The translations under genes were made by a program, and so were the position numbers. A stretch of 64,000 bases of DNA from Micrococcales bacterium. GTDB taxonomy: Bacteria > Actinomycetota > Actinomycetes > S36-B12 > UBA10799. Shown piece by piece: positions 8,741 to 62,908 of the stretch (position 1 is its first letter; each line of letters opens with the position of its first letter). Under the pieces are notes generated by a model, which had not been told where the DNA came from, ran no database searches, and saw only the letters and a list, made by a program, of their open reading frames with translations. The stretch covers positions 113,396 to 177,395 of the forward strand of contig JADJCR010000008.1 of the NCBI GenBank assembly GCA_016703125.1, given 5' to 3'.

Positions 8741-8803
8741 GGCGATCAACTCCGCACACAGGCTACGCCTCCGGTGTGACGATGAGAGGGAAAGAGGAGC
8801 CAC

Positions 8804-9069
8804 ATGGATCCCATCGCCACAATGGTCACCAGCCCGGTCGATGACGGTCAGATCGAGGTGTTCAGTTCTGGCCGGGGCCCTGCGGTAACGCCGCGGCCGC
8901 GGTGGCAGTTCTGCCATGCCGGCGGACCTCGGCCTCCCAACCGTGATCGACGACCTCGCCGCGGTGATGCCGGATGCCGACGTAGAGTTGATCCCCAGAC
9001 TCGGCCACGATGCCCTTGCCCAGAGCTCCGCGCCTCCTCGTGGACTCGCTGGTCCGGTTCCTTCGGTGA
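8804..9069 (+). pseudogene. Alpha/beta-hydrolase remnant (internal deletion plus frame changes)
   Basis: The N-terminal piece MDPIATMVTSPVDDGQIEVFSSGRGPAV is joined to a C-terminal piece DLGLPTVIDDLAAVMPDADVELIPRLGHDA. A tail ...LLVDSLVRFLR* lies in a third frame. The catalytic core is absent. Confidence 0.5.
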
Positions 9070-9108
9070 GTATTCCCCTCCCGGACCCGGTCGGAGTAGG
9101 GTCTGCCC

Positions 9109-9468
9109 ATGCGCCGCCTGTTGCTGATGCTCCCGATCGCTGCCCTCGCCATCCTGTTCATGCCCGCCAGCGCCTCGGCCAAGCCGGTCGTCCATTGCGA
9201 CAACGTGCGCGCCGACATCGGCAGTAAGACCTACGTCCTGGCCATCAAGGTGAAGGTCCGCGGGCTGCCGTGCTCCGCCACCAAAGCCTTCTGGAAGTCC
9301 TTCGCGACCGGCGAGACGGGCGATGCCACGACCGAGGACTTGCGCGTCGGCTGCAAGGACGGCTCCAAAGGGCAGCAGAAGGCGGCCGCCAAGCGGGGCC
9401 GGATGGCCTACTCATGCACCAGCAGCAACGGCAAGATCAACACGAAGGCGTGGGTCCTCGGGGGCTGA
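9109..9468 (+). CDS. Small secreted Cys-containing protein (paralog of 16803..17156)
   Basis: Signal peptide MRRLLLMLPIAALAILFMPASASA. Shares C..V, V.GL.C..AKAFW, CK.GSK, RMAY.C and the identical C-terminus TKAWVLGG with the 16.8 kb copy. Confidence 0.75.
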   Translation: MRRLLLMLPIAALAILFMPASASAKPVVHCDNVRADIGSKTYVLAIKVKVRGLPCSATKAFWKSFATGETGDATTEDLRVGCKDGSKGQQKAAAKRGRMAYSCTSSNGKINTKAWVLGG

Positions 9469-9507
9469 TCCCACCGCCCTCCCGGGTAGCGCGTAACCCC
9501 CGCCCGG

Positions 9508-10419
9508 TCAACGCCGGAAAGCCCCGAACAACCCCCGCCGCCCCGCGGGTTCCTCGCACGCATCGCACTCCTGCGTCGTCACCTGCGGCACCGGCCCTGC
9601 CACTGGATCGGTCACCGCACGTTCCGCAGCCAACAGCGCCGCGCCATACGCGCCCATCAACTGCGGGCGCGAGGGCATGTGCACGTCCAGCCCGCTCTGC
9701 TCGGCAAGCAGTGCCACGATCGCGGAGTTGCGCGCCACCCCGCCGGACAGCAGCAGCGGCGGCACAAGCCCGACGCTGCGTGCCATCGCGAGGATGCGGG
9801 AAACCAGGCCCGCATGCAGACCCAACAGGATCCGGTCGACCGTCTCCCCGTGTGCGACCAGCGAGATGATCTCCGACTCGGCGAAGACCGTGCACGTGGA
9901 GGTGATCCGCACGGCGTCCGGCGCGGACAGTGCCGTCGGGCCGAGGTCGTCGAGCTCCACGCCGAGCCGCCCGGCCGTGTGCTCCAGGAACCGTCCGGTG
10001 CCCGCGGCGCACTTGTCGTTCATGGCGAAGTCGATGGGTGAACCGGTCGGACCGATGCGGATCACTTTGCTGTCCTGCCCGCCGATGTCGATCAGCGTCC
10101 CGGCCATCCCGGTGTCGGCGAAAACGCCCCGCGCGTGGCAGGTGATCTCCGTGATCGCGCGGTCGGCCGCGGGCACGAGTTTGCGCCCGTAGCCAGTGGC
10201 GAAGACCGGAACCTCCGCGCCCATCCCGCGATCCGTCCGGAACGCCGCCACCGTGTCCCGGGTCTGGTTCTCCACATGCGGTGACATGGCGGCCAGTGTC
10301 CACGCGACGATGCGGAGGTCGGCGTCCACGGCCACCGCCTTGCAGGTGGTGGACCCTGCGTCGATGCCCAGTGCGACGATCGGCACGTCCGATTCGACGA
10401 CGAGGTCCACCTCGCTCAC
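9508..10419 (-). CDS. BadF/BadG/BcrA/BcrD-type ATPase (activase of 2-hydroxyacyl-CoA dehydratase/benzoyl-CoA reductase type)
   Basis: Acetate/sugar-kinase-fold motifs GIDAGSTTCKAV, DIGGQDSKVI and MNDKCAAGTGRFLE. Last gene of the three-gene operon. Confidence 0.85.
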   Translation of the reverse strand: MSEVDLVVESDVPIVALGIDAGSTTCKAVAVDADLRIVAWTLAAMSPHVENQTRDTVAAFRTDRGMGAEVPVFATGYGRKLVPAADRAITEITCHARGVFADTGMAGTLIDIGGQDSKVIRIGPTGSPIDFAMNDKCAAGTGRFLEHTAGRLGVELDDLGPTALSAPDAVRITSTCTVFAESEIISLVAHGETVDRILLGLHAGLVSRILAMARSVGLVPPLLLSGGVARNSAIVALLAEQSGLDVHMPSRPQLMGAYGAALLAAERAVTDPVAGPVPQVTTQECDACEEPAGRRGLFGAFRR

Positions 10420-12947: not shown

Positions 12948-13466
12948 GTGCCCCGAATCGTGCTCACAGTCATCGGCGACGACCGCGCTGGTCTGGTGGC
13001 GGCTTTGTCGGAAGTCGTCTCCACCCACGATGGCAACTGGGAGCGCAGCCAGTTGGCCGAACTGGCAGGCAAGTTCGCCGGGATCGTTGTGGTGTCGGTG
13101 CCCGATGAGCGCGTCGAGGCCCTGACCGCAGCGGTGCGGGCGCTGGATGGACTACTCGATGTGTCCGCGTACCCCGCGTCCGGTCGCGCGGACAACAGGC
13201 CCGAGCAACTGCTCACCATCGACCTGCTGGGCAACGACCGGCCGGGGATCGTGCACGAGGTCTCTTCGGTGCTGCACCGGCACGAGCTCTCCATCGAGAT
13301 GATGGAGACGCATACCCGTGAGGCGCCCATGGCCGGCGGACAGCTCTTCGAGGCGCACATCGTGGTCAAGGTCCCGGCGTCGGCCGAGCCGGAAGCACTA
13401 CGGGCCGACCTCGAACGGCTGGCCACCGAACTGCTGGTGGACATTGCGCTGTCACCTGTCGAGTGA
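12948..13466 (+). CDS. Tandem ACT-domain protein (GcvR-like small-molecule-binding regulator)
   Basis: GTG start giving VPRIVLTVIGDDRAGLVAALSEVV. Second ACT unit LLTIDLLGNDRPGIVHEVSSVL. Divergent from the dehydratase operon. Confidence 0.7.
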   Translation: MPRIVLTVIGDDRAGLVAALSEVVSTHDGNWERSQLAELAGKFAGIVVVSVPDERVEALTAAVRALDGLLDVSAYPASGRADNRPEQLLTIDLLGNDRPGIVHEVSSVLHRHELSIEMMETHTREAPMAGGQLFEAHIVVKVPASAEPEALRADLERLATELLVDIALSPVE

Positions 13467-38605: not shown

Positions 38606-40659
38606 ATGGCGGAGTCAACCGAGACTGCCTCGGTGGCGATCCAGGCGGTGCTCGCCGCGATGGCCGGCCCGGAGGCGTTACCGCGCCCTGGTCAGGTGGA
38701 TGCGGTGTCCGCGCTGCTCGGCGGCGCCCAGCGGGTCCTCGTCGTCCAGGCCACCGGGTGGGGGAAGTCGGCGGTGTACTGGGCGGCCACGTTGGCGCGT
38801 CGCGATGCTGGCGCCGGGCCGACGATCGTCGTCTCGCCGCTGTTGGCGCTGATGCGCGACCAGGTGAAGGCCGCCGAAAGCATCGGCATCCAGGCCGCCA
38901 CCGTGAACTCGTCGAACAAGAGCGAGTGGGACGTGGTGTTCGATCGGCTCGACCGCGACGAGATCGACGTGTTGCTCGTGTCGCCGGAGCGGCTGTCCCA
39001 CCCGCAGTTCCAGGAACGCGCGATGCCGGTCCTGAAGTCGAGTGGGTTGCTCGTCATCGATGAGGCTCACTGCATCTCCGACTGGGGGTTCGACTTCCGC
39101 CCGGACTACCAGCGGATCGCGCGCCTGCTGCTCGAACTGGAGTCGGACACCCCGGTGCTTGCGACGACCGCCACCGCGACCTCCCGGGTGGTGGCCGACC
39201 TTGCCGAGCAACTCGGTCCGACGACGACCGTCATCCGCGGTCCTTTGGCCCGGAAGTCCCTGCAGTTGGCGGTGATCCCCCACTTGAACTACGGCCGTCG
39301 CTTCGCGTGGGTCGACGAGTTCCTCGCGCAGTCCCAGGGGTCCGGCATCATCTACGGACTGACCGTTCCGGTGGTGGAACAGTTGGCCGCGTTCCTTCAG
39401 GAACAGGGCCACGATGTCGAGCCCTACACCGGTAAGACACCGCCTGATGTGCGCGAGCAGATCGAGGCGCGGCTGCGGGCCAATTCGCTCAAGGCTGTCG
39501 TAGCGACGTCGGCGCTGGGGATGGGCTACGACAAGCCCGACCTGGCGTTCTGCATCCACGTGGGATCACCGGACTCGCCGGTCTCGTACTACCAGCAGGT
39601 GGGCCGCGCCGGCCGGGCTCGACAGTGCGGTGGGCGTGCTGCTGCCCGCCGGTGAGACCGACCAGCAGGTGTGGGACTGGTTCGCCACGGCCACGCTGCC
39701 GGACCCCGAGATGGCAGACCGGCTCCTGGAACTGCTGCGCCAACAGCCCCTGAAGACGACCGAGTTGGTCGATGCCCTGGCCCGCTCGAAAAGCAAGGTC
39801 GAGGTGCTGCTCAAGCAGTTGCGCGTCGACGGTGTCGTGGATGTGCAGGGCGGGCGGTGGATGGTCACCGGCAAGCGGTGGAGTTTCGACACCGACAAGT
39901 ACGACCGCCTCGTGGATGTGCGCCGCCATGAAGCCGGGATCATGTCGTCGTACGCCTCCGGTGCGCAGTGCCTGATGCAGTTGCTCACCACGGCGCTGGA
40001 CGATCCTGCCTCCCAACCGTGCGGACGGTGCTCGGTGTGCACAGGTGAGTTGCCCCCATCCGGGCCGGACACCGGACCCAGCACGCGTTGAGCGGGTGTA
40101 CGAGTCACTGCGCCGGCGCCCGGTGCGGATCACCCCGCGGAAGTTGTGGCCCTCGGGGTCCGGCCGATTGGGCAAGATCTCGGGCATCGCCACGGGCCGG
40201 GCGGTCACCGGCATGGACGGCGGAGTTTTTCCGGAGTTGTTGGACGAGGTGTTCGGCCCCGATGCTCCGCTGTCCGAGGAACTTCGGGCCGCATTCGGTC
40301 AACTACTGGCCCGGTGGCGCCGGGAGGACATGCCGCCCGTGACCGCTATCGTTCCCATCCCCAGTGCCAGCCACCCGGTGCGGGTGCAGGAACTGGCGGA
40401 ACTCGCGTCGGGGCAGTTGGGTCTGCCGGTCGTTGAGGTGTTCAAGCGGCCCGCCCAGGTGGCGGAGCACGTCGAGGGATCCGGTCGACTACGGCAAGTG
40501 ACCGGTCGCCTGGAACTGCAGCAGTCCCACGGGATCGGTGGAACGGTGCTGCTGGTCGATGAGTACAGCCGCAGCAAGTGGACGCTGACGCAGGCGGCTG
40601 TTGAACTGGTCGGCATCGGGGTGGACGAGGTCGTTCCGCTGGTGGTTGTCGGGGTGTGA
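38606..40659 (+). pseudogene. RecQ-family DNA helicase with a C-terminal phosphoribosyltransferase-like (ComF-type) domain, two frameshifts as assembled
   Basis: Motif I QATGWGKSAVY, DEAH box VIDEAHCISDWGFDFRPDY, ATTATAT, YYQQVGRAGR. The frame breaks near 39613-39617 and 40050-40085. The C-terminal piece (ORF 40045..40659) has IVPIPSASHPVRV and TVLLVDEYSRSKWTL, which look PRTase-like. Confidence 0.75.
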
Positions 40660-40666
40660 CCACCGG

Positions 40667-40783
40667 CTATCCCTCGAGGATGGCTTGGATGGCAACAGCA
40701 TCGACCGGCGATTCGTGTGCCAGGGTGTTCCAGACGATAACGGGGTCCACGACCTCGTACTTGTGAGCGATGAGGTTGCGCAT
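40667..40783 (-). pseudogene. C-terminal stub of a HepT (DUF86) type toxin
   Basis: MRNLIAHKYEVVDPVIVWNTLAHESPVDAVAIQAILEG keeps the Rx4HxY motif (RNLIAHKY). The upstream 35 codons of the ORF are low-complexity, and the N-terminal half of the fold is missing. Confidence 0.5.
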
Positions 40784-40796
40784 ACCCCCGTCGTGA

Positions 40797-41048
40797 TCAG
40801 TAGTCGAAGCGTGCGAAGTCCCGGTACGGGCGGTCGTAGCCCGAGTCGAAGCACGGGCACCAGTCGTCTCGTTGCTGGTCTTTGTCATGCCAACTCACCA
40901 GGGTTACCGGCGTGCTGGGTGGCAGTTCCATGAGGGGCAGCGTCGCCTCGAGTCGCCGCTGCACCACGTGGTGACCCTCAGCGTCAGGGTCCTGGTAGAA
41001 CACCGGGCCGGTCGGTCCGACGATGAGGTTGGGGTCATGGGTCCACAT
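40797..41048 (-). CDS. Hypothetical 83-aa protein
   Basis: MWTHDPNLIVGPTGPVFYQDPDAEGHH... has G/C-rich third positions. No recognisable motif. Confidence 0.35.
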   Translation of the reverse strand: MWTHDPNLIVGPTGPVFYQDPDAEGHHVVQRRLEATLPLMELPPSTPVTLVSWHDKDQQRDDWCPCFDSGYDRPYRDFARFDY

Positions 41049-41059
41049 CTTGAATCTCG

Positions 41060-41203
41060 TGACGGACTTCGGCGTGCTCGACCTGACTTTCTCGCCTGCT
41101 CATCAGGGTCGCTTCCCTGGACGACATCATCGAGTCCAAGCGTGACAAGGATCTCCGGGCGCTGCCCTACCTCGAGTCACTACGAGACGTGCGCGATTCC
41201 TAG
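41060..41203 (+). pseudogene. Possible C-terminal stub of a small nucleotidyltransferase-fold (MNT-like) protein
   Basis: ...IRVASLDDIIESKRDKDLRALPYLESLRDVRDS* resembles the V.VASLEDLI.MK...KDL.DL..L tail of such proteins. No start codon or body. Its TAG shares the CCTAGG at 41199-41204 with the jetD stop. Confidence 0.25.
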
Positions 41204-42355
41204 GTTGTCCCCGCGACCCGCGCCACCTCATCGCGCACCTCGCTGAACCGGATCCGCTCCTGCTCCAGCCGCACATGGTCGCCGTACACGTTCTGCCGCA
41301 ACGCGTCGTAGAGGGCCTGCTCATCGGGGAGCAATTGGGGCAGTTCGCGGGTGATCTGGGTCTTCTCGCTCACCCACATCTCGCGGTGCGCCTGCAACGT
41401 GGCCAGGTCCATGAGGATGCTTTGCGTGTGCGGGAGGTGGGCGCGGAACCGGTCGAGGATCGCCAGGCCGTGGGTGTCGAGGTCGCCGGTGTAGACGACC
41501 CGCCGCGCGGACAGGCCCGCCAGGAGTTCGGGTGCCTCGTTGCCCGCACCGAAGACCACTAGCGCGTCCGGGGCTGGTGGGAACGCCAGGAAGTTGGTGA
41601 GGTTCTCGGTGACGAACACGGTGTGCGCCGGGGGACACAGGCGCAGGAAGTCCGGCGCTGGCAGGGCCATGTCCCGCACGCCCGGCAGGAGGCACAGGGC
41701 GTCGTCGAGGACCCGGAAGCGCACGGTCGCCGGCGCGGTGAGGAAGCCGTAGCGCCGCTCGAACCAACCGGGTCCGGCCGTGGCGCGGCCGGGGACCAGA
41801 TCGCCGAGGACGCGCTTGTGCTGCTCCATGATCTTCGTGTGCACGCCGGGGATGTCCGTCTGGCGCAGGTAGATGCGGGGTCGGGGTGGGCGTGCAGCCA
41901 GGCTGCGGCCGACTGGATGGCAGCCCAGTCGTCGCCGATCTCGAGCAGGTGCAGGGGATGCCGGGCAGCCCAGTCCAGGTTCTGCGGGGCCGTCGCAGCG
42001 ATGAGTTGGTCGAAGCGCGCCGCCTGCCGGGTCCGCCGGATCAGGGTCAGCGCGTCCTGCGCGGTGTCGATCCACACCGCGACCGGCAGCGACTGCGTGC
42101 CCAGGACGCGATGGCCGATCGCTTGGGTCTCGATGCGCAGATCGGTGGCCCGCATGAGGGTCGCCGCCCAGTCCCGCACTGCCTCCCAGTCCCGGGAGAG
42201 GTCGGCCGCCCGGGGCCGCCGAAGGGGGATGCGCAGCGGGAACTCGACGCCGGTGTGCCCCGGGACCCGGCCCTGCAGCAGGCGGCCGGATTCCCACTGT
42301 TTGAGGAGGATCCGTGGATGTCCGCGGGGGTGGTCCAGGTCAGGGACCCTGCCAC
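41200..42355 (-). pseudogene. jetD: Wadjet JetD (DUF3322 plus DUF2220/Toprim), two frameshifts as assembled
   Basis: Three frames. The GTG start ..LTWTTPADI is in the frame of ORF 42047..42475. RILLKQWESGRLL...FPLRIPLRRP...WLHAHP is in ORF 41559..42737. PRIYLRQTDIPGVHTK...VFVTENLTNFLAF...YTGDLDTHGLAILDRFR is in ORF 41200..42297. The length, 1156 nt, is not a multiple of 3. Confidence 0.8.
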
Positions 42356-45300
42356 GGGTGCCTGCCTTCGCGGTACTGCTCGATCGTGAGGTTGCGCAGC
42401 TTCGGAGGTGACGCCGCCCTCGTTGGGTGAAGCCGACGGGGCGACGTACGGCTCGATGATGTGGATCTTCTGCATCGGGTGACGACCAATAGTTGCAGGT
42501 CCAGTCGCCGGAACAGTTCCAAGCCGAACCGCGCGGACTCGTCGGAACCGCGGCCGAACGCCTCGTCGATGACCACGAACCGGAAGCTACGGGTCTGCCG
42601 GCCGCTGACCAGGCCGAACTGATAGGCGAGGCTCGCCGCCAGGATCGTGTAGGCCAGTTTCTCCTTCTGGCCGCCGGACTTGCCTCCGGAGTCCGCGTAG
42701 TGCTCGTGTTCGGAGTCGTCGGCGCTGAGCCGCTCACTGGCGGCGAAGGTGAACCAGTTGCGCACGTCGGTCACCTTCGCGGTCCACCGCTTGTCCTCCG
42801 CGGTGCGGCCCTCCCGGCCCTGTAGCCGGCTGACGATGTCCTTGACCTGCAGGAACTTCTGCTCGGAGTAGTGGTCGTCGGCAGACCCAGTGACGGTGTC
42901 CTCGGTACAGGCGCGCAACTGCTGGCGGAACTCCCGGACGTCGGCGTCGGTGGAACCGGTCGGCTCCAGGCGGATGTAGGTGTGCGGCTGGTACGGGATG
43001 TCGCGCAGGGACGTGTTGATGTCGCCGATGCGGCGCTTGATGTCCTCCCGGGCCACCTCCAGCGCGGTGCGGAACCCGACCACCTCCCGGATGGCGTGGG
43101 TGTTCAAGGCGCGCTTGAACGCGTCCTCGAAGCGGGGCAGGTCATCGTCGAGGAGCCGCTGCAACAACTCGCGGTACTCGTGGCCGGCCTCCACCGCGGT
43201 GTCCATGTCCTGGGTCTGCAGTGGCCACCGGTTCCGGAACTCGCCCATCGCCGCCACGATCGAGGTGTTGAGGCGCTTGGCCCGCTCGTCGAGCCGGTCG
43301 ATGGTGGTCTGCAACTCGAGGCGGATCGTGCGCTCGGCGCTTTCGCAGGTCCGCACCTGCAGGTTCTCCGGCTCGAACGGCTGCACCAGCCCGCGCTGCT
43401 CGGGTGTCGCCAACGGCTGCTGCGTCAGTTCCTCGAGGTCCTGTTCGTCCTGTCCGATCCGGTCGACCAGTACCGCGTCCTGCGTTTCGAGTTCGATGCG
43501 TGCGGCCTCCAGGGAACGCAACTCGGTCAGAACCTGTTCGAGCCGCTGGTTGAGGTGCTTGAGGGTGTCGTTGGACTCCCGAAGAAGCGCCAACTGCTGG
43601 CGCACGGTCTCCAAGCGGGCCGCGTCGTTCTGCCAGTCCAGCGAGGACCACGCGCGGCGCTGCATCAGCACGGCGATCTGCTGGGCGCGCACGTCCAGGG
43701 AGCGCTGATGGGCGCGGATCCCCTCCTGCTCGTGCGCCTGCCGGTCCACCAGCGCCGCCGCCTCGGAACGCTGCCGCTCCATCGTCTTGCGCTTGGCGGT
43801 GTTGTCCCAACCGAGGACGTACCAGCGGCGATCACCCAGGCGCCGCCGGTCGTCCTTCTCGTGGCGCTCCCCGCCACCCTTGATCTGACCGTTGCGGGTC
43901 AGCGCCCGCCGCTCGATGCGGAACTCGTCGGGGGAGGTCGCGCACACTACGTCGAAGCGCTTCTGGACCTCCGCGCCGAGCCAGTCGCTGAACACCGTGC
44001 CCGGGCGCACCTCGAGCTTGTGGACCAGCGAGCGCGGGTCGGTGACCGCCGGCACCCGCACGCCCTCGCGGACCCGGTAGTAGACCAGGCGTCCGCGCAG
44101 GTCGGTCTGGTCCACCCACCCGGCCACGGCCGCGTAGTCCTCGTCGCGCACCAGCAGCGACAGGGCGAAGCCGCGCAGCAGGCGCTCGGCGGCCGGCTCC
44201 CACGACTCGTCGGAGACCCGTAGCAGCTCTCCGGCGAATGGCACGTCCGCCGGCTCCAGCCCGGTCCCCTCGCACAGCCGGGCGCGCAGGAGGATCATCG
44301 TCTGGTCGATGCTGCTGCTGCGGTCGGCCAGGCCCTTGAGCTCGGTCTCGATCTCGTCGAGCCGGGTCCGCGCGTCGCGCAGGGTCACCGACTGCTCCGT
44401 GGCGGAGTTCTCCAAGCGGTCACGCTCCGCGGTGAGTTCTCCGCTGAGGGCGGCGAGCTCCTGCTGCTGGTGGACCAGCGACTGCTCGTCGGTGGCCGGT
44501 GCCACTCCGACCTGCTGGCACAAGCCCACGTAGTGCGTGTGCGCCTCCCGTTTGGCGTCCCGGCCGGCTGTCAGGTCGGCGATGTCGGACTGGAGTTGCT
44601 CCTGCCGCTCGCCGCCGTTCTCCCGGATCGCCGCGTGCAGTTCCTGCTCCTCGCGCTGCGCGCAGCGCACGCTCTGCTCGGCGGCGGCCTTGCGGTTCAG
44701 CAGTCCCTCCCGCTCGCCCTGCCGGCGGGCGATGCGCTCAGTCAGCAACTCGGTCCGGCGCAAGGCGAAGTAAGGGGACAGCGCGTCGCGGACCGCCCGG
44801 GTCTGCTCGGCCTGCGTGGCCACCGTGTCGTGGTCGTCGAGCCTGGCCGCCAGCGGGGTCAGCGCGTCGACCTGCTGCCGGGCGTCGACCACGAGGTCGT
44901 GAGCGCGGTTCAGGTCCTGGAAATGCTTGATCAGCGCCTCGATGCGGGCATCGACGTCGGCGGGTTCGAGCATGTGGGTGCGGACGAACTCGGTCAGATT
45001 CCCTACCGACTTCATCGACACCGTCTGGTGGAACAGTTCCAATGCCTGCGGGTGAGTGATCCCCAGGCGGCGCCGGAAGTCGGCGCTGTACTTGCTGAAA
45101 CTGTCGTGCATCGTCGTGTCCCGCTCGCGCAGGTGCCGGCGCAGGTTGGACAGATCGCTGCCCACGTCCCGGAAGTCCCCAGTGATGCTCAGCGCCGTGC
45201 CCGACACCGCGTAGATGCGTGACGGCTGGTCGGCACGGTCCTTGAACCAGAAGACCTGCGCGACGGTGACGGTCTCCTGCAGGGCGGTGTTGGCGAACCG

Positions 45301-47655: not shown

Positions 47656-47809
47656 CGGCACCCCCTTCGGAACCGTTTGAACGACCGTAACCGACGGGTG
47701 CGACAGGATCGGGGAAGGGACCGGGGGTGGTGTGGGCAGGGCACGGCTCTTGCGTCGCAGCACACCGGAGATGTCAGACCCGGATTGCACAATGACGTGG
47801 GGAGGTCAG

Positions 47810-49960
47810 ATGACCAAGAAGCCGGCGGTTCCGGATCCGGGCAGTGTCACGTTCGCACCGTTGGGTGCGGAGTCCGGGAGTGCGGCAGTTGAGGTGCGGT
47901 CGGAATCTGGACTGGCTGACGTGGTGGCCTGGATCCAGTCGCCGCATCGCACCACTCCGGTCGTGCTGGTGACGTCGGGGTGGATGATGCTGAGCCGTGG
48001 ATCGATGCCGAGGAGTTGGCCGCCGCGCGGTCGGATGCCAGCGTGTATGTGATCCGGCGGACCAAGCTGACGTGGCTGCTGGCCGACTACGTGCCGGCCA
48101 ACTGGGAGGTCTACGGCGGAGGGGGCCGGGTCTACCCGCCGCGTATTGACCTGAAGGGGAACCCGTTCGGGGCGCCACTTGTGCTGTGTCAGGGCAAGCA
48201 GGAGGCGGGCAAGGCGACGGGCGCGCTCATCGACCACCTGCGCCGCTCCGTGGAGCCGAAGCGCAAACAGCGTCCTCCGCTGGCTCCCGTGCCCCCGCGT
48301 CCAGCCGCCCCACCACTTCAGGCCGCGACGAAGCCCAGATCGGGGGTCGCCCGGATCGCGACGCCGGGCGACGCCGAGGCGATGGCAGACCGCCTCCAGG
48401 ATCCGAACCGTCGGTTTCCCGTCGTTGTGGTGACGAACGCGACGGGCGAGGCCCCTATCTGGATGCCGAACGCATCGCCAGCGACCTCGATGGACTGGTT
48501 GAGGTATGCCGGCTCATCCAGGGCGAGGCGTCGTGGGCGTTCACGGGTGCGATGCCAGACCGGCTCGGGGTGTTCGGCGGCGCGGCGCGGGTCTATCCGG
48601 TTGAACTGGACTGGCTGCAGGACGAGACGAGGGCGCCGCTGAAGTTCTGCTGGGACGGGATCGGTGCGCGGCGGATCACCACGGAGGTGATCGAGGCGGG
48701 CCTGTCGGCTGCCCACGCCGCCGGGTTGTTGACGCCGGCGGCACCCCGGGCGAAGGCCAGACAGTGTCAGGCGATCGTCGAGGGCCCCATGGGCGAGTTC
48801 CACGTCCTGCTGAAGGTGCCCGATGGTGGGCAGGCGGTGGCGCTGGCCGCGACCATCCGCCCGGGCGTCGCGGCTGATCGGCTGGTGGTCAAAGGACAGC
48901 GTCTGTCGGGGTACCTGGACGGCAGGGGCGGGCCAATCAGTCAGTTCCAAATCGCCGAGATCCCCGATGATCCGATGCAGCGCGTCAGGTCGGCCTACTC
49001 CGATGGCTCGGTGGTCCTGGCCAAGGTGGTCGAGGTCGGGGAACTCAGTGCCAAGGTGGGTTTGCATCCCGACGTCGAGATCTGGCTGCTCGGAGAGATC
49101 ACCGGCCCGCCGCTGAGCCGCATGATCGATGCTGGCGACGTCGTCGCTGTTCAGATCCACGCCGACGGTGACACGCTGGAGTGCCGGTTGCCGGACACCG
49201 ACGAGTCGCCCGTGCCTGCGGTCCCGGTGATTCCCGGTGGTCCGCCCTGGCTGGTTCCCGAGGACCTGATCGAGGACGAGGAACCGGCGGAGGCGGTGGC
49301 CCTGGAACCGCTGGTTCTTGAAGAGGTGGTGGCTCCGGCACCGGTGAGGTCGCCGACTCCCGATCCTGCCAGGCTCGGGCAGCTGCAGGCCGCCAACCGT
49401 GAGCGCACTCTGCTGGATACCCGCCTGGCGAAGGCGGAGGCTGAGCTGGCCGCAGCGAAGGCCGAAGCTGCCCGGCTGCGCCGCAGCCTGCGCGACGCTG
49501 ACAAGAAGGCCAAGCAGGCGATCAGGCGTGCCCAGGAGATGGACGATCGAGCGCGTGGAATGGGGGTGTTCAACGATCCGGGCGAGCAACTGCGGCACGA
49601 GATCCGGCTGCAGTACCTGCATCGAATTCCGGAATCTCAGCGGGCGGAACTGCCACTCGCGGAGTATCGGCTCGGGCCGAGATTCCTCGATTCGCTGGAT
49701 GACCTCAAGGGCGTGACGCGGGACAAGGCCGTGGATGTGCTTGTCGAGGTGCTCACCGGGCTGGTGCGATCGATGCCCGGCCGCCAGCTCCATCCATGGC
49801 GGGCCGGACCTGCCGGACCGCAGCAAACCCGGGCCGACGGGGGTGCCGCGTGGAGGTGCAGCCTGCAGGTGAACACCCGTCGGCGCGGCGGCTGAAGTAC
49901 TGGCAACTCCCGGGCGGGACGGTGGAGTTCGACTCGGTGGGCGCACGACGAGGAATCTGA
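47810..49960 (+). pseudogene. Large multidomain protein of unknown function (tandem duplicated N-terminal domain, OB/S1-like segments, coiled coil, conserved C-terminal tail), at least 3 frameshifts as assembled
   Basis: GGGGAGG RBS and ATG at 47810. The pieces lie in ORFs 47732..48052, 47980..48642 and 48186..49895, plus a tail to TGA at 49958-49960. The breaks sit at G/C runs 47977-47980, 48452-48455 and 49876-49878. Confidence 0.65.
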
Positions 49961-50023
49961 CCTTGGTGCGTCCGTGTCGTAGGCCCATGTTTCAATCGGG
50001 CTCCAGTCGGCGGAAGGGGAGAC

Positions 50024-51134
50024 ATGGCCAGGGATCGCGAGTCGTACGAGGCGGTACTGCAGGCGGTCGGCGTGTGCGTTGCCGCGCGGATCCCGTTCCT
50101 GTTATGGGGTGATCCGGGGGCTGGGAAGACGGCGGTGATCGAGTCGGCAGCGGGCAGCGGGTGGCATGTGGAGACGTTGATCTGTTCGCATTACGAGCCG
50201 TCGGACTTCGCGGGGTTGCCGGTGGTGAACGGGGACCGGGTCACGCTGGCTCCGCCGGGGTGGGCGGTGCGGTTGTCCGAGGAGCCGAAGCCGTCGATCG
50301 TGTTCTTCGACGAGTGGACGACCGCGTCCCCGGCGGTGCAGGCGGCGCGTTGCGGCCGCTGACGCATGCGCAGGTGGGGTGTTGCAGTTGCCGGATCGGG
50401 TGTCGTTCGGGGCGGCGGCGAACCCGGCGGATGTGGCGGCGTCGGGTGGGAGTTGGCGCCGCCGACGGCGAACCGGTTCGTGCATCTGGAGTGGTCGTTG
50501 CCACTGGATGTGCACACGGAATCGATCGTGACTGGGACTGGCCGGTGCTGCCGGTGCCGGAGCGACCGGCGGACCTCGACGGGTTGGCCTCGGCGCAGGC
50601 AGTCTGGTGGCCGGGTTCCTGCGCACCCGGGGCGGGCAGTGTCGTCGATCCCGAAGGATTCGGCCGGCCGCGGGCGGGCGTTCCCGACACCACGGACGTG
50701 GGATTACGCGGCGCAGTTGCTGGCGATCGCGGAGCATGCCGGGTGCCGGCGAGGAGGTGCGGCGGTTGCTGGTGTACGGGGCGGTGGGTGCGCCGGTGGG
50801 CCATGAGTTCCTGACGTGGCGCTCGGCGTTGGATCTGCCGGATCCGGAGGAGCTGCTGGCCGATCCGTTGGGTGATGGGTTGAAGGGGCTGCGCGCCGAC
50901 CGGGTGCATGTGGCCCTGCAGGGGGTGCTGGCCGCGTACACCTCCGACCCGACGCCGGATCGGTGGACCGCGGCGATGGGGGTCTGTGTCGGGGCGGCGG
51001 CCCATTCGAGTCTGGATTCGGCGGTACCGGTGGTGCGGGCGTTGCTGCGGCCGGGGCGCCGGCCGGCGGGTGCGGAGTTGCCGCCTGGGCTGACGGTGTT
51101 CGCGCCGGCATTGCAGTTGGCCGGTCTGCTGTGA
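50024..51134 (+). pseudogene. MoxR-type AAA+ ATPase (AAA_5-like), many frameshifts as assembled
   Basis: Walker A LWGDPGAGKTAVIE, Walker B SIVFFDEWTTASPAVQAA. It continues as LLRPLTHAQVG, VLQLPDRVSFGAAANPADV, WELAPPTANRFVHLEW and so on, cycling through all three frames to ...LQLAGLL* at 51134. Confidence 0.7.
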
Positions 51135-52333
51135 TCGGAGCCGACGTCGCCGAGCGGCTGGCGGCGGCGAAGTTGTGGCTGGTGTCGCAGTCGGCAGGAG
51201 ACATGCCGTACTTGTCGACGGCGGTGTACGCGTTGGTGACGGTGCCCACGGAGCGGTGGAGCGGATGTCCACCGACGTCTACTGGCGGCTCTACGTCAAC
51301 CCGCTGTGGGTGCTGGGCGCGGATGTGGATGCGCTGGCCCGGGAGATCGCCCATCAACTGTGGCACTTGCTCGCCGACCACGCCGGGCGGCGACCGACTG
51401 CGGGTGGATGCCGCGTCTCGGGACAGGTGGAAGATGGCCGCCGACCTGACGATCGGGGAGGTGTTGCCGTTCGATGCCGGCCTGCCGCAACCCCGGCAGG
51501 TGCACCAGGCCCCGAACCGCTCGGCCGAGGAGTACTTCCGGCTGTTGCGGGCCCGGCCGGTGACGAAGCCGCCGCTGGGGCTGGACCCGGACCACACCTG
51601 TGGCAGTGGGAGTGACGGGATGGCCCGCGAGCACGACCTGCCACCGGGCGACGCGGGAGATGCCGGGGCTGTCCACGCAGGCCGCCGAGGCGATCCGCAA
51701 GACGGTGGCGATCGAGTTCCGCGAGCACTGCACCCAGTACGGCAGCATGCCTGGGGAGGGGCCGGTGGGTCGGGGACATCCTGACCCGGTGGTGCCGTGG
51801 CAGCAGGTGTTGCACGCGGCGGTGCGCCGTGGGATCGGCTGGGGCAGGGGCAGGTCGACTACACGTACTCGAAGATCTCCCGGCGCCAGCAGGCGGTGGG
51901 GCGGCGATCGTGCCGGCGTTGCGGCGCCCGCTGCCTGCGGTCGCGGTGGTGGTCGACACGTCGGGCAGTATCGACGACGGGCTGCTGGCCCAGGCGCTGG
52001 GGGAGGTCAAATCGGTGCTTGCCTCCTTGGCGGTGCCGGACAGCAGCGTGACGGTGCTGGCGGTGGACGCCGCCGTGCACACCGTGCAGCAGGTCCGCGA
52101 TGTGCGAGGTGCGGCTGACTGGCGGTGGTGGCACAGACATGGGCGTGGGGATCGCGGGGGCGTCCGTTCGCCGGCCGGCCCCGCAGACGGTCACTGTGCT
52201 CACCGACGGCACCCCGTGGCCGACGATGCCCGTACCGGTGCCGGTGATCGTGGGCGTGCTGGGCCGGCGCCGCGACCAGTTGCCCCCGACGCCGGGCTGG
52301 GTGCAGCGGGTGGAAGTAGTGCCCGATGGGTGA
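51131..52333 (+). pseudogene. vWA-domain protein with an N-terminal metallopeptidase-like domain (DUF2201-type), several frameshifts as assembled
   Basis: GTGA start/stop overlap with the ATPase gene. AKLWLVSQSAGDMPYLSTAVYAL, REIAHQLWHLLADH, WKMAADLTIGEVL, MIDAS-type AVAVVVDTSGSIDD and LTGGGGTDM. Ends VVPDG* at 52333. Confidence 0.7.
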
Positions 52334-53125
52334 CCTGCCCGGACCTGTCACTGTGACCGTGACCTGCCGGACCAGCCGGACCAGCACCAAAGGCTCGAAG
52401 CGACACCCGGTCACGCTGTTCCCGGACGGACCGTGGACACCGGGCACGACTTGGAGCAGGAGCGGATCCCGGCCGCGCTCGGCGGGTACCTGTCGTGCCT
52501 GGAACTGGCGGATGTCGCGTCGCCGGCGGTGCTCGAGTGGTTCACGCTGGAACAGCGCCTGGTCGCCCGCCCGATTCGCGCCACGCAGTCACGAGGGCCG
52601 TGGCACCCGGCCAAGAAGGCCCAGTGTTGCGCGCGCCGGGGGTACAAGACCGCGCAGGACGCTGCCGCCCACGCCCGGGACCCGAAACATGTGGCGCTGA
52701 CCCACGGCGCGCACGCATGGCAGGTGGTGGCGCTGTGCCGCGGGTTCGCGCCGGAACCGGCCCCGGAGATGCCCGGTGAACCTTGGACCGCGATGTGGGA
52801 GTGGGATGCACCCGGACGAGGTCGACCGGATCAGCCTGGAGATCGACGCCGACGACCCGTTGCCGGTGCAGTTCTACCTCGGTGTGATGGCGCGCAACCC
52901 TGAGCCTGACATGGATCCGCGACACGATGCGGGCGGTGCACCTGGAACCTCGCTCGATCACCTACCTGGCGTGGAGTTACGGCAAGGCCGACCGGGCCGA
53001 CCTGACCCTGCGCCCGCTGGCTGCGCACCGGGATCATGGACCGGCTGGCGCAGCGGCTCATCAGCAGCCCCTACGACATCGGTGACGTGGAGGCCTCGCC
53101 GCGCACTGGGCGATCAGCCCGGTGA
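52326..53125 (+). pseudogene. Cys/His-rich protein of unknown function, several frameshifts as assembled
   Basis: ATG overlaps the vWA gene end by 8 nt. VTVTCRTSRTSTKGSKRHPVTLFPDGP, then VDTGHDLEQERIPAALGGYLSCLEL...KKAQCCARRGYKTAQDAAAHARDPKH (ORF 52433..52903), then later pieces in the other frames. The 3' end is uncertain. Confidence 0.5.
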
Positions 53126-53180
53126 TGGCCGGCGGGGAGCTTGTGAAGTGGTACGACTCTGGTGGCCCCGCCGGTAGCGA

Positions 53181-53443
53181 TGCTCACCGGGCCGGAAGTG
53201 GACCACCTGGCCTACCCGCCCACACCGCCGCGATGGCAGACGCGGGCGCGGCTTCGGGACGAGTTGGAGGATAGGGGGGTAGCCGGAGTGAACGGGATCA
53301 CCGAGGAGGAGTTGGCGCTGGCGTTGGTGCAGTGGGGGAGCGTGGGGAGAGCGGTGAATGGGCTCGAGTCGGCAGGGGATGAAGAGTGGACAACCGCAGG
53401 CCGGCGTGCCGAACTTCCGTGGCCGCCCTCCATTTGGCCTTGA
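53181..53443 (+). CDS. Small ORF, 87 aa, paralog of 61653..61875
   Basis: MLTGPEVDHLAYPPTPPRWQTRARLRDELEDRGVAGVNGITEEELALALVQWGS... Similarity to the second copy begins exactly at the ATG, and the differences are mostly synonymous. Confidence 0.55.
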
Positions 53444-61652: not shown

Positions 61653-61875
61653 ATGCTGGCAGGACCGGCGCAGCGTGCACTCGTTGTCCCGCTCTGGTTC
61701 GCCGCGACGAGCGCGCCGGACCATCTCGCCTACCCGCCGACGCCGCCGAGGTGGCAGACACGGGTGCGGCTTCGGGATGAAATGGGGGGACCGAGGGTGC
61801 AAAGGGGTGGCGCAACTGAGTGAGGAGGATCTGGGGCTCGCGATCGTGCAATGGGGAAGGGGGTGTATTGGGTGA
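61653..61875 (+). pseudogene. Second copy of the small ORF family (paralog of 53181..53443), one frameshift as assembled
   Basis: MLAGPAQRALVVPLWFAATSAPDHLAYPPTPPRWQTRVRLRDEMGG, then after a G-run near 61771-61775 ...DRGCKGVAQLSEEDLGLAIVQWGRGCIG* (ORFs 61587..61823 and 61675..61875). Confidence 0.5.
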
Positions 61876-62111: not shown

Positions 62112-62429
62112 ATGCCCACCCCGATCATCGAGGCGGAGTCCACACTGACCGACCGCTATCAGACAACGATCCCTGAACCGGTTCGCCGTGCCCTCGGCCT
62201 GGGTAAGCGCGACGCTCTCATTTACACCGTGCTCGATGACGGCTCCGTGCGAATCTCCCGCGCCAACGAAGACCCCACACTTGCCCCGTTCCTCGTTCTG
62301 CTCGCAGAAGACATTGCCCTTCACCCCGAGCACCTGAAAGTCGTTCCCGATAGTCTGCTGCAACGTATCGACGACTTGGTTGGCGGAATGGACGTCGACC
62401 TTGACGCCCCGCTTGATGAAGACGATTGA
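62112..62429 (+). CDS. prlF: Type II antitoxin, PrlF (SohA) family, AbrB/SpoVT-type DNA-binding domain
   Basis: ESTLTDRYQTTIPEPVRRALGLGKRDALIYTVLDDGSVRI with an acidic tail ...DVDLDAPLDEDD. Confidence 0.85.
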   Translation: MPTPIIEAESTLTDRYQTTIPEPVRRALGLGKRDALIYTVLDDGSVRISRANEDPTLAPFLVLLAEDIALHPEHLKVVPDSLLQRIDDLVGGMDVDLDAPLDEDD

Positions 62430-62908
62430 TGGGGGCCACGGGGGTTGTTGTCAACGGGTGGGTGATCGTCGCCCACCCGTTGTTCCTCGCGCAGGTGGAA
62501 GCGCTCATCGCGCAGGTGACAGCCGCGAGGGAGCGCTACCCCGAGACATACCAGCGAAAGCCTGCGGCCAAACGGTTGGCTGCCATCCGAAAACTCGCCT
62601 TCAACGACATCCCCTCCGACCCAGGCCACGCACGGTACCGGCTGGGTAACACGATGGGGGGCGACTACCGGTTCTGGCGTCGGGCCAAGTTCTTCGAGCG
62701 GTATCGCTTGTTCTTCCGGTACCACGAGAGCGAACGGGTGATCGTCCTTGCCTGGGTGAACGATTCGTCGTCTCTGCGGGAACGCGGTTCCAAGTCCGAC
62801 GCCTACAGCGTGTTTGAAAGCATGCTGGGCCGCGGCAAGCCCCCCGCCACGTGGAAGGAACTCCTGGCTGAGTCGCAGTCAGCCGAACCCCTTGCGCCGC
62901 CGGGGTAA
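62429..62908 (+). CDS. yhaV: Type II toxin, YhaV-family ribonuclease
   Basis: VNGWVIVAHPLFLAQVEALI...FFERYRLFFRYHESERVIVLAWVNDSSSLRERGSKSDAYSVF. The ATG overlaps the prlF TGA; the ORF track uses the TTG at 62426. Confidence 0.8.
   Translation: MGATGVVVNGWVIVAHPLFLAQVEALIAQVTAARERYPETYQRKPAAKRLAAIRKLAFNDIPSDPGHARYRLGNTMGGDYRFWRRAKFFERYRLFFRYHESERVIVLAWVNDSSSLRERGSKSDAYSVFESMLGRGKPPATWKELLAESQSAEPLAPPG

Follow-up and report, generated by a model that had tools for sequence, protein, structure and literature searches.

An apparent five-gene MoxR–vWA module beside Wadjet is a composite of a stand-alone gene and a separable three-gene operon

Introduction

Few uncharacterised ATPase modules are as common in bacteria as pairs of a MoxR-type AAA+ ATPase and a von Willebrand factor A (vWA) protein, and to our knowledge an immunity role has been proposed for these pairs on computational grounds only. 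A locus from a Micrococcales bacterium raises the question of whether such a pair is the core of a larger, undescribed conflict system. The locus (47810–53443) lies in a 64,000-nucleotide stretch of contig JADJCR010000008.1 (assembly GCA_016703125.1, forward-strand positions 113,396 to 177,395), referred to here as the window, where it adjoins jetA of a Wadjet system. An initial annotation, made from the sequence of the window, read the locus as one operon of five genes, namely a multidomain protein, a MoxR ATPase, a vWA protein, a Cys/His-rich protein and a small open reading frame (ORF), and proposed that they form a nucleoside-triphosphate (NTP)-dependent conflict system. We find that what looks like a five-gene system combines a stand-alone gene related to the defence candidate HEC-07 (gene 1) with a trio encoding a MoxR ATPase, a vWA protein and a repeat protein (genes 2–4). 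The reading we favour, which stands at about an even chance, is that these are two independent neighbouring units and that the mobile trio has a conflict-type role.

Results

The block contains four genes

The block 47810–53443 is coding on one strand (+) and points away from jetA, which was identified by a DUF3375 match (E = 5.7e-145). The gap of about 150 bp reported between jetA and gene 1 holds, assuming the jetA length of 478 aa called in relatives. The G+C content of the window is ~69%, and between 47.8 and 53.45 kb the plus-strand frame of highest third-position G+C switches repeatedly, with the diagnostic motifs contained in stop-free segments; a scan for promoters and terminators was uninformative in this high-GC DNA. 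Intact relatives of the block consist of four genes (Table 1), downstream of which lies a GltD-like oxidoreductase on the opposite strand. The counterparts of gene 1 are uninterrupted at 718 aa both in a 3.45-Mb metagenomic contig (P0001, 99% identical) and in short-read contigs (P0002, 88% identical). Gene 1 and gene 2 are 63 bp apart in the window lineage, and the overlaps described between genes 2 and 3 (4 nt) and between genes 3 and 4 (8 nt) are present. Residues 13–374 of the intact gene-4 orthologue align with window positions 52343–53440 (tblastn), and the supposed fifth gene, an 87-aa ORF at 53162–53443, is the C-terminal end of gene 4; it appears separate as assembled because a 2-nt deletion at about position 53161 splits gene 4.

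Table 1 Coordinates of the locus and of other features in the window.
Feature	Position	Strand	Basis or remark
Divergent intergenic region, jetA (minus) / gene 1	47656..47809	.	jetA 478 aa in relatives; gene 1 start 47810
Gene 1	47810..49960	+	tblastn of intact orthologue: 47810-49942, three frames; 718 aa intact
Gene 2, MoxR-type AAA+ ATPase	50024..51134	+	371 aa intact; Pfam AAA_5, PHROG
Gene 3, DUF2201 protein	51131..52333	+	404 aa intact; Pfam DUF2201_N + DUF2201
Gene 4, Cys/His module + helical repeat	52326..53443	+	371-374 aa intact; tblastn
Relic, 3' end of second gene-4 copy, diverged	61718..61859	+	blastn 73.6% over 144 nt; just upstream of the start of the pyruvate:ferredoxin oxidoreductase (POR) gene, before PrlF
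PrlF/YhaV pair	62112-62908		PrlF antitoxin E = 3.5e-34, YhaV toxin E = 1.4e-54; intact, 4-nt overlap
HepT-like fragment, upstream of jetD	40667-40885
tRNA-Phe/Asp/Glu cluster	63186-63463

Genes 2–4 form a conserved and mobile unit

When an alignment of gene 4 was run against 185,579 species genomes, it returned 19 loci, which span Nanopelagicales, Frankiaceae, Nocardioidaceae, Pseudonocardiales, Microbacteriaceae, Mycobacteriaceae and Cellulomonas. Genes 2, 3 and 4 are adjacent in 17 of these loci, the other two being cut by contig ends, and about 20 further loci likewise keep the trio adjacent. The order is 2-3-4 in close relatives and 4-2-3 in distant ones, gene 4 is divergently oriented in one locus, the trio being otherwise co-oriented, and overlapping stop and start codons are usual within the trio. 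A second scan, with gene 3, reached at least 583 species that fall into two clades. Clade A, in which the ATPase is at least 54% identical, comprises only ~25 of the 185,579 species, including Nocardioides alpinus, Microbacterium sp. HA-8 and one Chloroflexota metagenome-assembled genome. Gene 4 stands beside the pair in every clade A locus long enough to show it, with Dermacoccus abyssi (L048) as the one unclear case. Clade B, found in Streptomyces, Actinomadura, Dactylosporangium and Micromonospora, has an ATPase ~43% identical and lacks gene 4. Genes 2–4 are one conserved, separable three-gene unit.

The trio is also rare, patchy, accessory and horizontally mobile. Its flanking gene clusters are common to at most two closely related loci, and no synteny with core genes was found across genera, the flanks being unrelated between lineages.

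Two Nocardioides species have different genes downstream of a 95.6% identical gene-1 homologue and its 450-aa partner. N. alpinus (L039, 3346–8236) carries the trio at this position, with two gene-4 paralogues; in N. zhouii (L152, 14439–17977) the position is taken by a 405-aa protein and by a 772-aa GAP1-N2 protein (PF20013), a type known from the published GTPase conflict systems. The position looks like a cargo-swapping hot spot.

Gene 1 stands apart from the trio

Grouping all genes of the block into a single operon does not survive comparison with other genomes, as gene 1 is separable. The gene-1 family occurs in at least 290 actinobacterial species genomes; these were recovered by an alignment-based scan, whereas a single-sequence scan of species genomes found nothing. 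Of 80 gene-1 loci, 79 are without any MoxR/DUF2201 pair and none contains gene 4. Reciprocally, no gene 1 lies within 10 kb of the trio in any of the 19 gene-4 loci from the Genome Taxonomy Database (GTDB), including the closest ones at 79–81% gene-4 identity, and gene 1 is missing from all other clade A loci but one (L039). About 15 Nocardioides species hold gene 1 in one conserved, trio-free neighbourhood beside a large S8 peptidase; gene-1 synteny is not conserved beyond them, and elsewhere the gene is found alone or beside other genes, such as those for dynamin-like, PD-(D/E)xK and HNH proteins in L008.

Gene 1 and the trio come close in three places only. The first is the window lineage. 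In the second, L012, they are separated by 7.3 kb, a stretch occupied by an SbcCD-like pair and an uncharacterised gene of 750 aa. In the third, N. alpinus, a gene-1 homologue only ~31% identical to that of the window is adjacent to the trio, and its 95.6% identical counterpart in N. zhouii is found without a trio. These three adjacencies are better explained by shared variable islands than by a functional bond. Gene 1 is a separable, stand-alone unit and not a core partner of genes 2–4.

Proteins encoded by the trio

All three motifs that had been picked out in the window were located, and the domain assignments of genes 2 and 3 agree with Pfam. Gene 2 carries the Walker A motif GDPGAGKT at 50108–50131 and the Walker B motif FFDEW at 50303–50317. 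Its intact orthologue matches Pfam AAA_5 (26.8 bits, cut-off 22) and the ATPase family phrog_1297 (E = 4.8e-39), while the score against the bpMoxR model (17.5–19.7 bits) stays under the cut-off of 27.

The intact gene-3 orthologue combines DUF2201_N (3.9e-20; 73.0 bits, cut-off 23.2), the metallopeptidase-like domain, with the DUF2201 vWA domain (8.2e-22; 78.1 bits, cut-off 26.4), the Pfam models of the DUF2201 family being PF13203 and PF09967, and matches phrog_1314 (E = 4.2e-41). The vWA domain occupies residues 273–399 of 404, and DUF2201_N is the only other domain. The metal-ion-dependent adhesion site (MIDAS) is complete, with DTSGS at 51955–51969, GGGTD at 52124–52138 and a TDG motif, and its residues D278, S280, S282, T338 and D362 are invariant in 15/15 orthologues. 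The zincin-like domain contains the motif HQLWHLLADH (51352–51381), an H-x3-H-x4-H arrangement in which the three His are retained and the catalytic Glu is replaced by Gln.

Gene 4 is Cys/His-rich as described, with a probably zinc-binding module of two clusters (C14, H27, H41 and C58, then C101, C102, H116 and H122); seven Cys/His residues are invariant in the gene-4 alignments. An AlphaFold2 (AF2) model, with a predicted local distance difference test score (pLDDT) of 88.6 and a predicted template modelling score (pTM) of 0.81, places an alpha-helical repeat domain after this module. Foldseek searches with the model gave no match under E = 1e-3 in PDB or BFVD, the insignificant ones being helical-repeat and tape-measure proteins only. 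No sequence match was found in Pfam (E ≤ 0.1, including the VMAP, STAND and FtsH models), NCBIfam, PADLOC or PHROG, nor in phages. Sequence searches of PDB with genes 2–4 returned only a weak P-loop match to midasin.

An exhaustive profile search among 1.84 billion representatives yielded 382 gene-4 clusters at 50% identity, a family that by this measure is small but very diverse. Distant loci are 56–66% identical to the reference in gene 2, 44–50% in gene 3 and 28–36% in gene 4, and these identities indicate a rate of evolution in gene 4 roughly double that of the ATPase. Tandem gene-4 paralogues occur in three loci (L038, L039 and L051), with mutual identities of 28–34%. The C..H..H..C arrangement is present in five of the six tandem copies and was not found in the sixth (L038, 3779–4714, 311 aa).

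Comparison of the trio with named systems

Four MoxR–vWA ternary conflict systems, of the VMAP, iSTAND, FtsH and beta-propeller types, have been described, with functions predicted from genomics (Kaur, Burroughs, Iyer & Aravind 2020, PMC7159879). Like the trio, they are operons of a MoxR AAA+ protein, a vWA partner and a more variable third protein, and they are common in Actinomycetota, where the trio also occurs. The trio shares the adjacent, co-oriented MoxR and vWA genes of these systems (AAA_5 followed by DUF2201/VWA_2, with a 4-nt overlap). It departs from them in the other three of four defining features: gene 4 shows no match to a VMAP, an inactive STAND, an FtsH or a vWA-fused beta-propeller; the vWA domain of gene 3 is C-terminal, behind the zincin-like DUF2201_N, whereas theirs is N-terminal and followed by variable C-terminal effector domains; and gene 2 does not belong to a dedicated MoxR clade such as bpMoxR. 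Unlike these systems, the trio has no effector or effector-associated domain.

The trio matches no PADLOC 2.0 model, and literature searches for DUF2201 with MoxR, for APE2220, and for MoxR with ankyrin, leucine-rich repeat (LRR) or Streptomyces found no functional study. The claim that the partner set corresponds to no named system accordingly stands for genes 2–4; it does not extend to gene 1, which has a domain in common with HEC-07. The trio is best described as a variant of the MoxR–vWA ternary theme that has not been described previously.

Domain structure of gene 1 and its relation to HEC-07

The architecture outlined for gene 1, with tandem N-terminal domains, S1/OB segments, a coiled coil of about 60 residues and a conserved tail, was recovered in the intact 718-aa protein. 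An AF2 model (pLDDT 80) shows two tandem thioredoxin-like domains, two S1/OB domains, a 63-residue helix predicted as a coiled coil, and a conserved C-terminal domain. In Foldseek searches the S1/OB part matched bS1 (E = 2e-7), and the thioredoxin-like part matched calsequestrin and protein disulfide isomerase (PDI) at ~1e-4, and also ERdj5; the sequence contains no CxxC. The C-terminal alpha/beta domain has a beta-alpha-alpha-beta3 topology in the model and invariant His, Arg and Glu in the alignment, including H714, four residues before the C-terminus.

Both thioredoxin-like copies are matched by the PADLOC model HEC-07 (PDLC04161; E = 3.6e-28) over profile positions ~139–292. HEC-07 is an Hma-embedded candidate, a single-gene system that lowered plaquing in E. 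coli and that combines AdoMetDC-like, thioredoxin-like and RelE-like domains (preprint, Payne et al. 2024, doi 10.1101/2024.01.29.577857). Both HEC-07 and gene 1 are large single proteins with a thioredoxin-like domain lacking CxxC and a small C-terminal domain with an invariant His close to the C-terminus. Gene 1 differs in its two thioredoxin-like copies, its two S1/OB domains and its coiled coil, none of which is described for HEC-07. The AdoMetDC-like N-terminus of HEC-07 is unmatched in gene 1 among the best-scoring stretches, the gene-1 N-terminus being a thioredoxin-like copy, and the gene-1 C-terminal domain matches neither the HEC-07 profiles nor RelE by sequence. Judged from these profile matches, gene 1 shares a domain with HEC-07 and is not a member.

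The topology of the C-terminal domain makes a RelE-like tail a lead for gene 1, and sequence support for it was not found. Searches with 15 members gave no profile match to RelE/ParE in PDB, Pfam or PADLOC, and alignment with E. coli RelE (hhalign, with an approximate RelE sequence) reached a probability of 0.7%. The domain (residues ~570–716) recurs at the C-terminus of plasmid proteins with unrelated N-termini (L196, 1654–3486, 610 aa; L197, 2344–3414, 356 aa). Such recurrence on actinobacterial plasmids is typical of a modular effector or toxin domain and points to an output function.

Relatives in clade B, phages and plasmids

The clade B operon was examined in 56 loci. An LRR_6 protein (44/56) and an ankyrin-repeat protein of ~570 aa (50/56, often in two copies) precede the MoxR and DUF2201 genes, and a short-chain dehydrogenase precedes the operon in 18/56. 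An example is L074 (2742–8143) of Streptomyces albogriseolus; loci L055–L113 show that at least 50 species of cultured actinomycetes carry this operon, which seems not to have been described before, and in NCBI its uncharacterised core proteins are labelled 'MoxR family ATPase' and 'VWA-like domain-containing protein'. Clade B and the trio share the two-gene core (~42% identity), the same orientation and upstream repeat-protein partners that are often duplicated; they differ in that LRR and ankyrin partners take the place of gene 4. Clade B is far commoner than clade A and provides most of the at least 583 species matches.

A motif, V.V.CR..H.V..P.H..E..R...A.GG....C, is common to the gene-4 N-terminus and the clade B ankyrin protein, and we regard kinship between the two as a lead that this resemblance offers. 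Gene 4 showed no homology to the LRR or dehydrogenase partners. The HExxH motif of the zincin-like domain is kept in 49/55 clade B members and lost in ~39/42 clade A members.

Related pairs also occur on mobile elements. The phrog_1297 and phrog_1314 profile matches run full length over both core proteins, and MoxR/DUF2201 pairs are present in N4-like (Schitoviridae) and jumbo (PA5oct-like) phages; in Vibrio phage SBP1 the genes for helicase and DNA polymerase follow shortly after the pair. Further relatives are carried by 68 actinobacterial plasmids, half of them from Rhodococcus and others from Mycobacterium and Streptomyces, near ParA and other backbone genes. In both core proteins and in the presence of the MIDAS these pairs resemble the trio. 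They are unlike it in their identity of 21–39%, their intact HExxH (HETWH in a phage copy, HEVGH in a plasmid copy), the absence of gene 4 and their location among replication or backbone genes; the plasmid gene order vWA-x-x-AAA is also unlike that of the trio.

Phage SBP1 (N4-like; L195, 3468–3968) has an HNH endonuclease gene between its MoxR and DUF2201 genes. This insertion probably explains the label 'HNH endonuclease' wrongly given to phrog_1314 and to many phage DUF2201 genes.

Frameshifts in the window

As the initial annotation had warned, the genes are frameshifted as assembled. Relative to a 98.7% identical contig (L001) and an 88–94% identical short-read contig (L002), the four genes contain ~27 small indels: those of gene 1 lie at 47977, 48452, 49876, 49944 and 49952, and genes 2, 3 and 4 have seven, about ten and six, respectively. 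The whole 22-kb comparison with L001 gave 41 indel events, 27 inside the four genes; 35 of the 41 are deletions, mostly of 1–2 nt, and the same positions also differ from L002. The events fall into two blocks, 39.6–42.5 kb (DEAD-box helicase, jetD and the end of jetC) and 47.98–53.57 kb (the four genes), and none lies in jetB, in jetA or in 5.6 kb of the GltD-like/POR genes. The four genes hold 73 substitutions, distributed over codon positions 1/2/3 as 8/3/13, 4/0/7, 5/5/12 and 1/4/11 in genes 1 to 4, so that a third-position bias is kept, at a density not above that of the intact, indel-free flanks. Only roughly a third of the indel events fall in runs of at least three identical bases, and G-runs, which are two to three times denser in the module than in the flanks, account for no more than part of the clustering.

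We consider it likely that the frameshifts are long-read consensus errors and not gene decay, because the ratio of indels to substitutions is not that expected of neutral decay; gene 1 and the trio are probably intact in reality and garbled by assembly errors. True pseudogenisation, with genuine indels and a non-functional module in this genome, would fit the restriction of the indels to accessory segments in an assembly with 11 kb of indel-free flanks, a clustering that weighs against the error explanation to the extent that G-runs leave it unexplained, and a gene-4 relic elsewhere in the window shows that such genes do decay here. We nevertheless judge it unlikely, since 27 indels to 73 substitutions far exceeds what neutral decay produces, the substitutions remain at flank level with their third-position bias, deletions of 1–2 nt are typical of long-read consensus, and all but one of these genes are intact in the 98.7% identical contig.

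L001 is itself an error-prone long-read assembly. It has its own frameshift in gene 3 at 13449–13451 (359 aa called instead of 404), and at least one apparent deletion in the window (51247) is really an insertion in L001. Within the window, the other indel cluster (39617–42477) breaks the DEAD/ResIII helicase (38.2–40.7 kb) and jetD (two frames, 41200–42737) and scrambles the last ~25 codons of jetC. The rest of jetC, jetB and jetA are clean, and the Wadjet system is without an intact JetD as assembled.

Surroundings of the locus

The toxin–antitoxin genes and tRNAs reported around the module are present (Table 1), and an Rfam scan of the window found the three tRNAs and nothing else. Contrary to the arrangement first described, Wadjet and PrlF/YhaV are not both immediate neighbours of the module: PrlF/YhaV and the tRNAs are 8.7–10 kb away, beyond an 8-kb housekeeping operon that encodes the GltD-like oxidoreductase and POR. 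Near the far end of this operon lies the gene-4 relic. It corresponds to gene-4 residues 295–340, with identities of 91% and 61% (tblastn), and is not clearly closer to any one relative. Together with 53200–53340 it makes up a direct repeat (family D2, 83% over 71 nt) with a spacing of 8518 nt that brackets the GltD-like/POR operon. The relative L013 has the whole trio on the relic's side of POR, and this suggests that trio copies have been gained and lost around the operon.

In L002 and L003 (88–94% identity) a TacA-like antitoxin and a GNAT acetyltransferase form a pair (8795–9650) between jetA and gene 1. Neither the window nor L001 contains it, which marks this gap as an insertion site. 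A functional link between the trio and Wadjet was considered and rejected, as every other trio locus lacks Wadjet and this toxin–antitoxin pair splits jetA from gene 1 in L002 and L003.

Discussion

Genes 2–4 are a real, conserved MoxR/vWA operon; the five-gene conflict unit is not, and a conflict role survives as a proposal for the trio. A defence role for the trio is plausible, and with modest confidence we picture it as a conflict-type, ATP-driven sensor or remodeller. Gene 4 would be the specificity subunit, a role suggested because of its low identity, its tandem paralogues and its 382 diverse clusters, and its helical-repeat surface would bind a target protein. An acidic residue, in either the target or gene 4, may be clamped by the gene-3 MIDAS, and the MoxR hexamer would spend ATP to remodel or release the complex. 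The clade B core, with HExxH intact, is probably an ATP-gated metalloprotease guided by its LRR and ankyrin proteins, and clade A would be a protease-dead derivative that acts by binding and remodelling. In such a scheme the trio would sense or neutralise proteins of invading elements and would not serve housekeeping. As for the separate gene 1, its thioredoxin-like and S1/OB domains may be ligand- or RNA-binding parts and its modular C-terminal domain the output (effector) part.

Several observations favour a conflict role for the trio. It is extremely patchy, with unrelated flanks, and it is present or absent between near-identical loci in which a conflict-system protein is the alternative cargo. 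Gene 4 evolves fast and duplicates, clade B has LRR and ankyrin partners, and phages and plasmids carry related cores. The island of the window lineage contains Wadjet, the HEC-07-like gene 1 and toxin–antitoxin genes, and the gene-4 relic lies 8.5 kb away.

Other observations weigh against it. No recognisable effector domain (nuclease, pore, NADase and the like) was found in the trio, and the zincin-like domain of gene 3, the only enzyme-like domain besides the ATPase, looks inactive from its motif. The defence-island setting described for the window holds for its lineage and does not generalise: across 16 other loci, the 111 neighbour proteins are mostly oxidoreductases, transporters and regulators, PADLOC matches (E ≤ 1e-5) amount to a handful of proteins in raw counts, about half of them in L012, and no enrichment of defence genes was seen. 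The profile alignment between gene 4 and the clade B ankyrin protein is weak (hhalign E = 0.006, probability 6%, over a short motif). Finally, the MoxR–vWA pairs of known function are chaperones for enzyme maturation (reviewed in PMC7159879).

This last point underlies the leading alternative, that genes 2–4 are dedicated to chaperoning or maturing a cellular metallo- or flavo-enzyme in the manner of NorQ/NorD, CbbQ/CbbO or CoxD/CoxE, with gene 4 as an assembly adaptor and no conflict role. RavA–ViaA, NorQ–NorD, CbbQ–CbbO and CoxD–CoxE all share with the trio an AAA+ ring ATPase and a MIDAS-bearing vWA cofactor, and ATP-driven remodelling of a bound protein is the likely common mechanism; every experimentally understood MoxR–vWA pair works in this way. 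The trio carries no toxic effector, abuts the GltD-like/POR operon both in the window and in L013, and in L032 is followed by an FAD oxidoreductase 43 bp after gene 3. FAD/NAD oxidoreductases are also the most frequent Pfam families among its 111 neighbours (DAO 4, Pyr_redox_2 3, FAD_binding_2 3), but the enrichment is weak, given how abundant flavin oxidoreductases are in actinobacteria, where they belong to the most common families. Known pairs adjoin their client, whereas no client gene is conserved beside the trio, which further differs from the classical pairs in its extra zincin-like domain, its obligatory third protein and its patchy, mobile distribution. With a carriage of ~25 species, presence and absence between near-identical Nocardioides loci, a partner that diverges fast and duplicates, and homologous cores on phages and plasmids, a maturation role is possible and on balance rather unlikely.

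A wider proposal, to which we lend tentative weight at most, is that the core and its repeat partners (gene 4 in one clade, LRR and ankyrin proteins in the other) form a large undescribed family devoted to ATP-dependent surveillance in Actinomycetota and their mobile elements. The repeats would recognise foreign proteins and the MoxR–vWA core would gate a metalloprotease, with clade A, protease-dead, acting by sequestration or remodelling.

We think it improbable that gene 1 and genes 2–4 make up one defence system in which gene 1 is sensor and effector and the MoxR–vWA pair its regulator. The 63-bp spacing without a predicted terminator would suit such a system, as would the recurrence of the adjacency in N. 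alpinus despite the ~31% identity of gene 1 and the 7-kb distance in L012; two uncommon families found close together in three lineages exceed chance expectation. The counts nevertheless run the other way on both sides, with no gene 1 near the 19 trio loci and almost no trio near the 80 gene-1 loci. The ~15 Nocardioides species and N. zhouii hold gene 1 without a trio, and a shared variable island accounts for the three adjacencies.

That the trio is instead a mobile-element function landed in the chromosome, such as a replication, establishment or anti-defence factor unrelated to host defence, is equally hard to credit: related pairs do occur in N4-like phages, where they adjoin helicase and DNA polymerase in the early or replication region, in jumbo phages, and on 68 plasmids near backbone genes, but those copies belong to other clades, with HExxH intact and gene 4 absent, neither sequence nor fold searches matched gene 4 to phages, and no integrase, transposase or phage structural gene is among the top 25 of 124 neighbour families at the 16 loci.

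The favoured reading, a stand-alone gene 1 beside an independent mobile trio, defines a clean three-gene unit whose partner gene 4 matches no family model, solved structure or predicted viral structure. It also warns that the frameshifts, probably assembly errors, would mislead automatic annotation. The trio is linked in turn to a much larger LRR- and ankyrin-associated operon in hundreds of cultivable actinomycetes, and to versions of the core on phages and plasmids. Cultured carriers, among them Nocardioides alpinus CGMCC 1.10697 and Microbacterium sp. HA-8 for the trio and many Streptomyces for clade B, make it testable whether these ATPase modules are chaperones or immune sensors.

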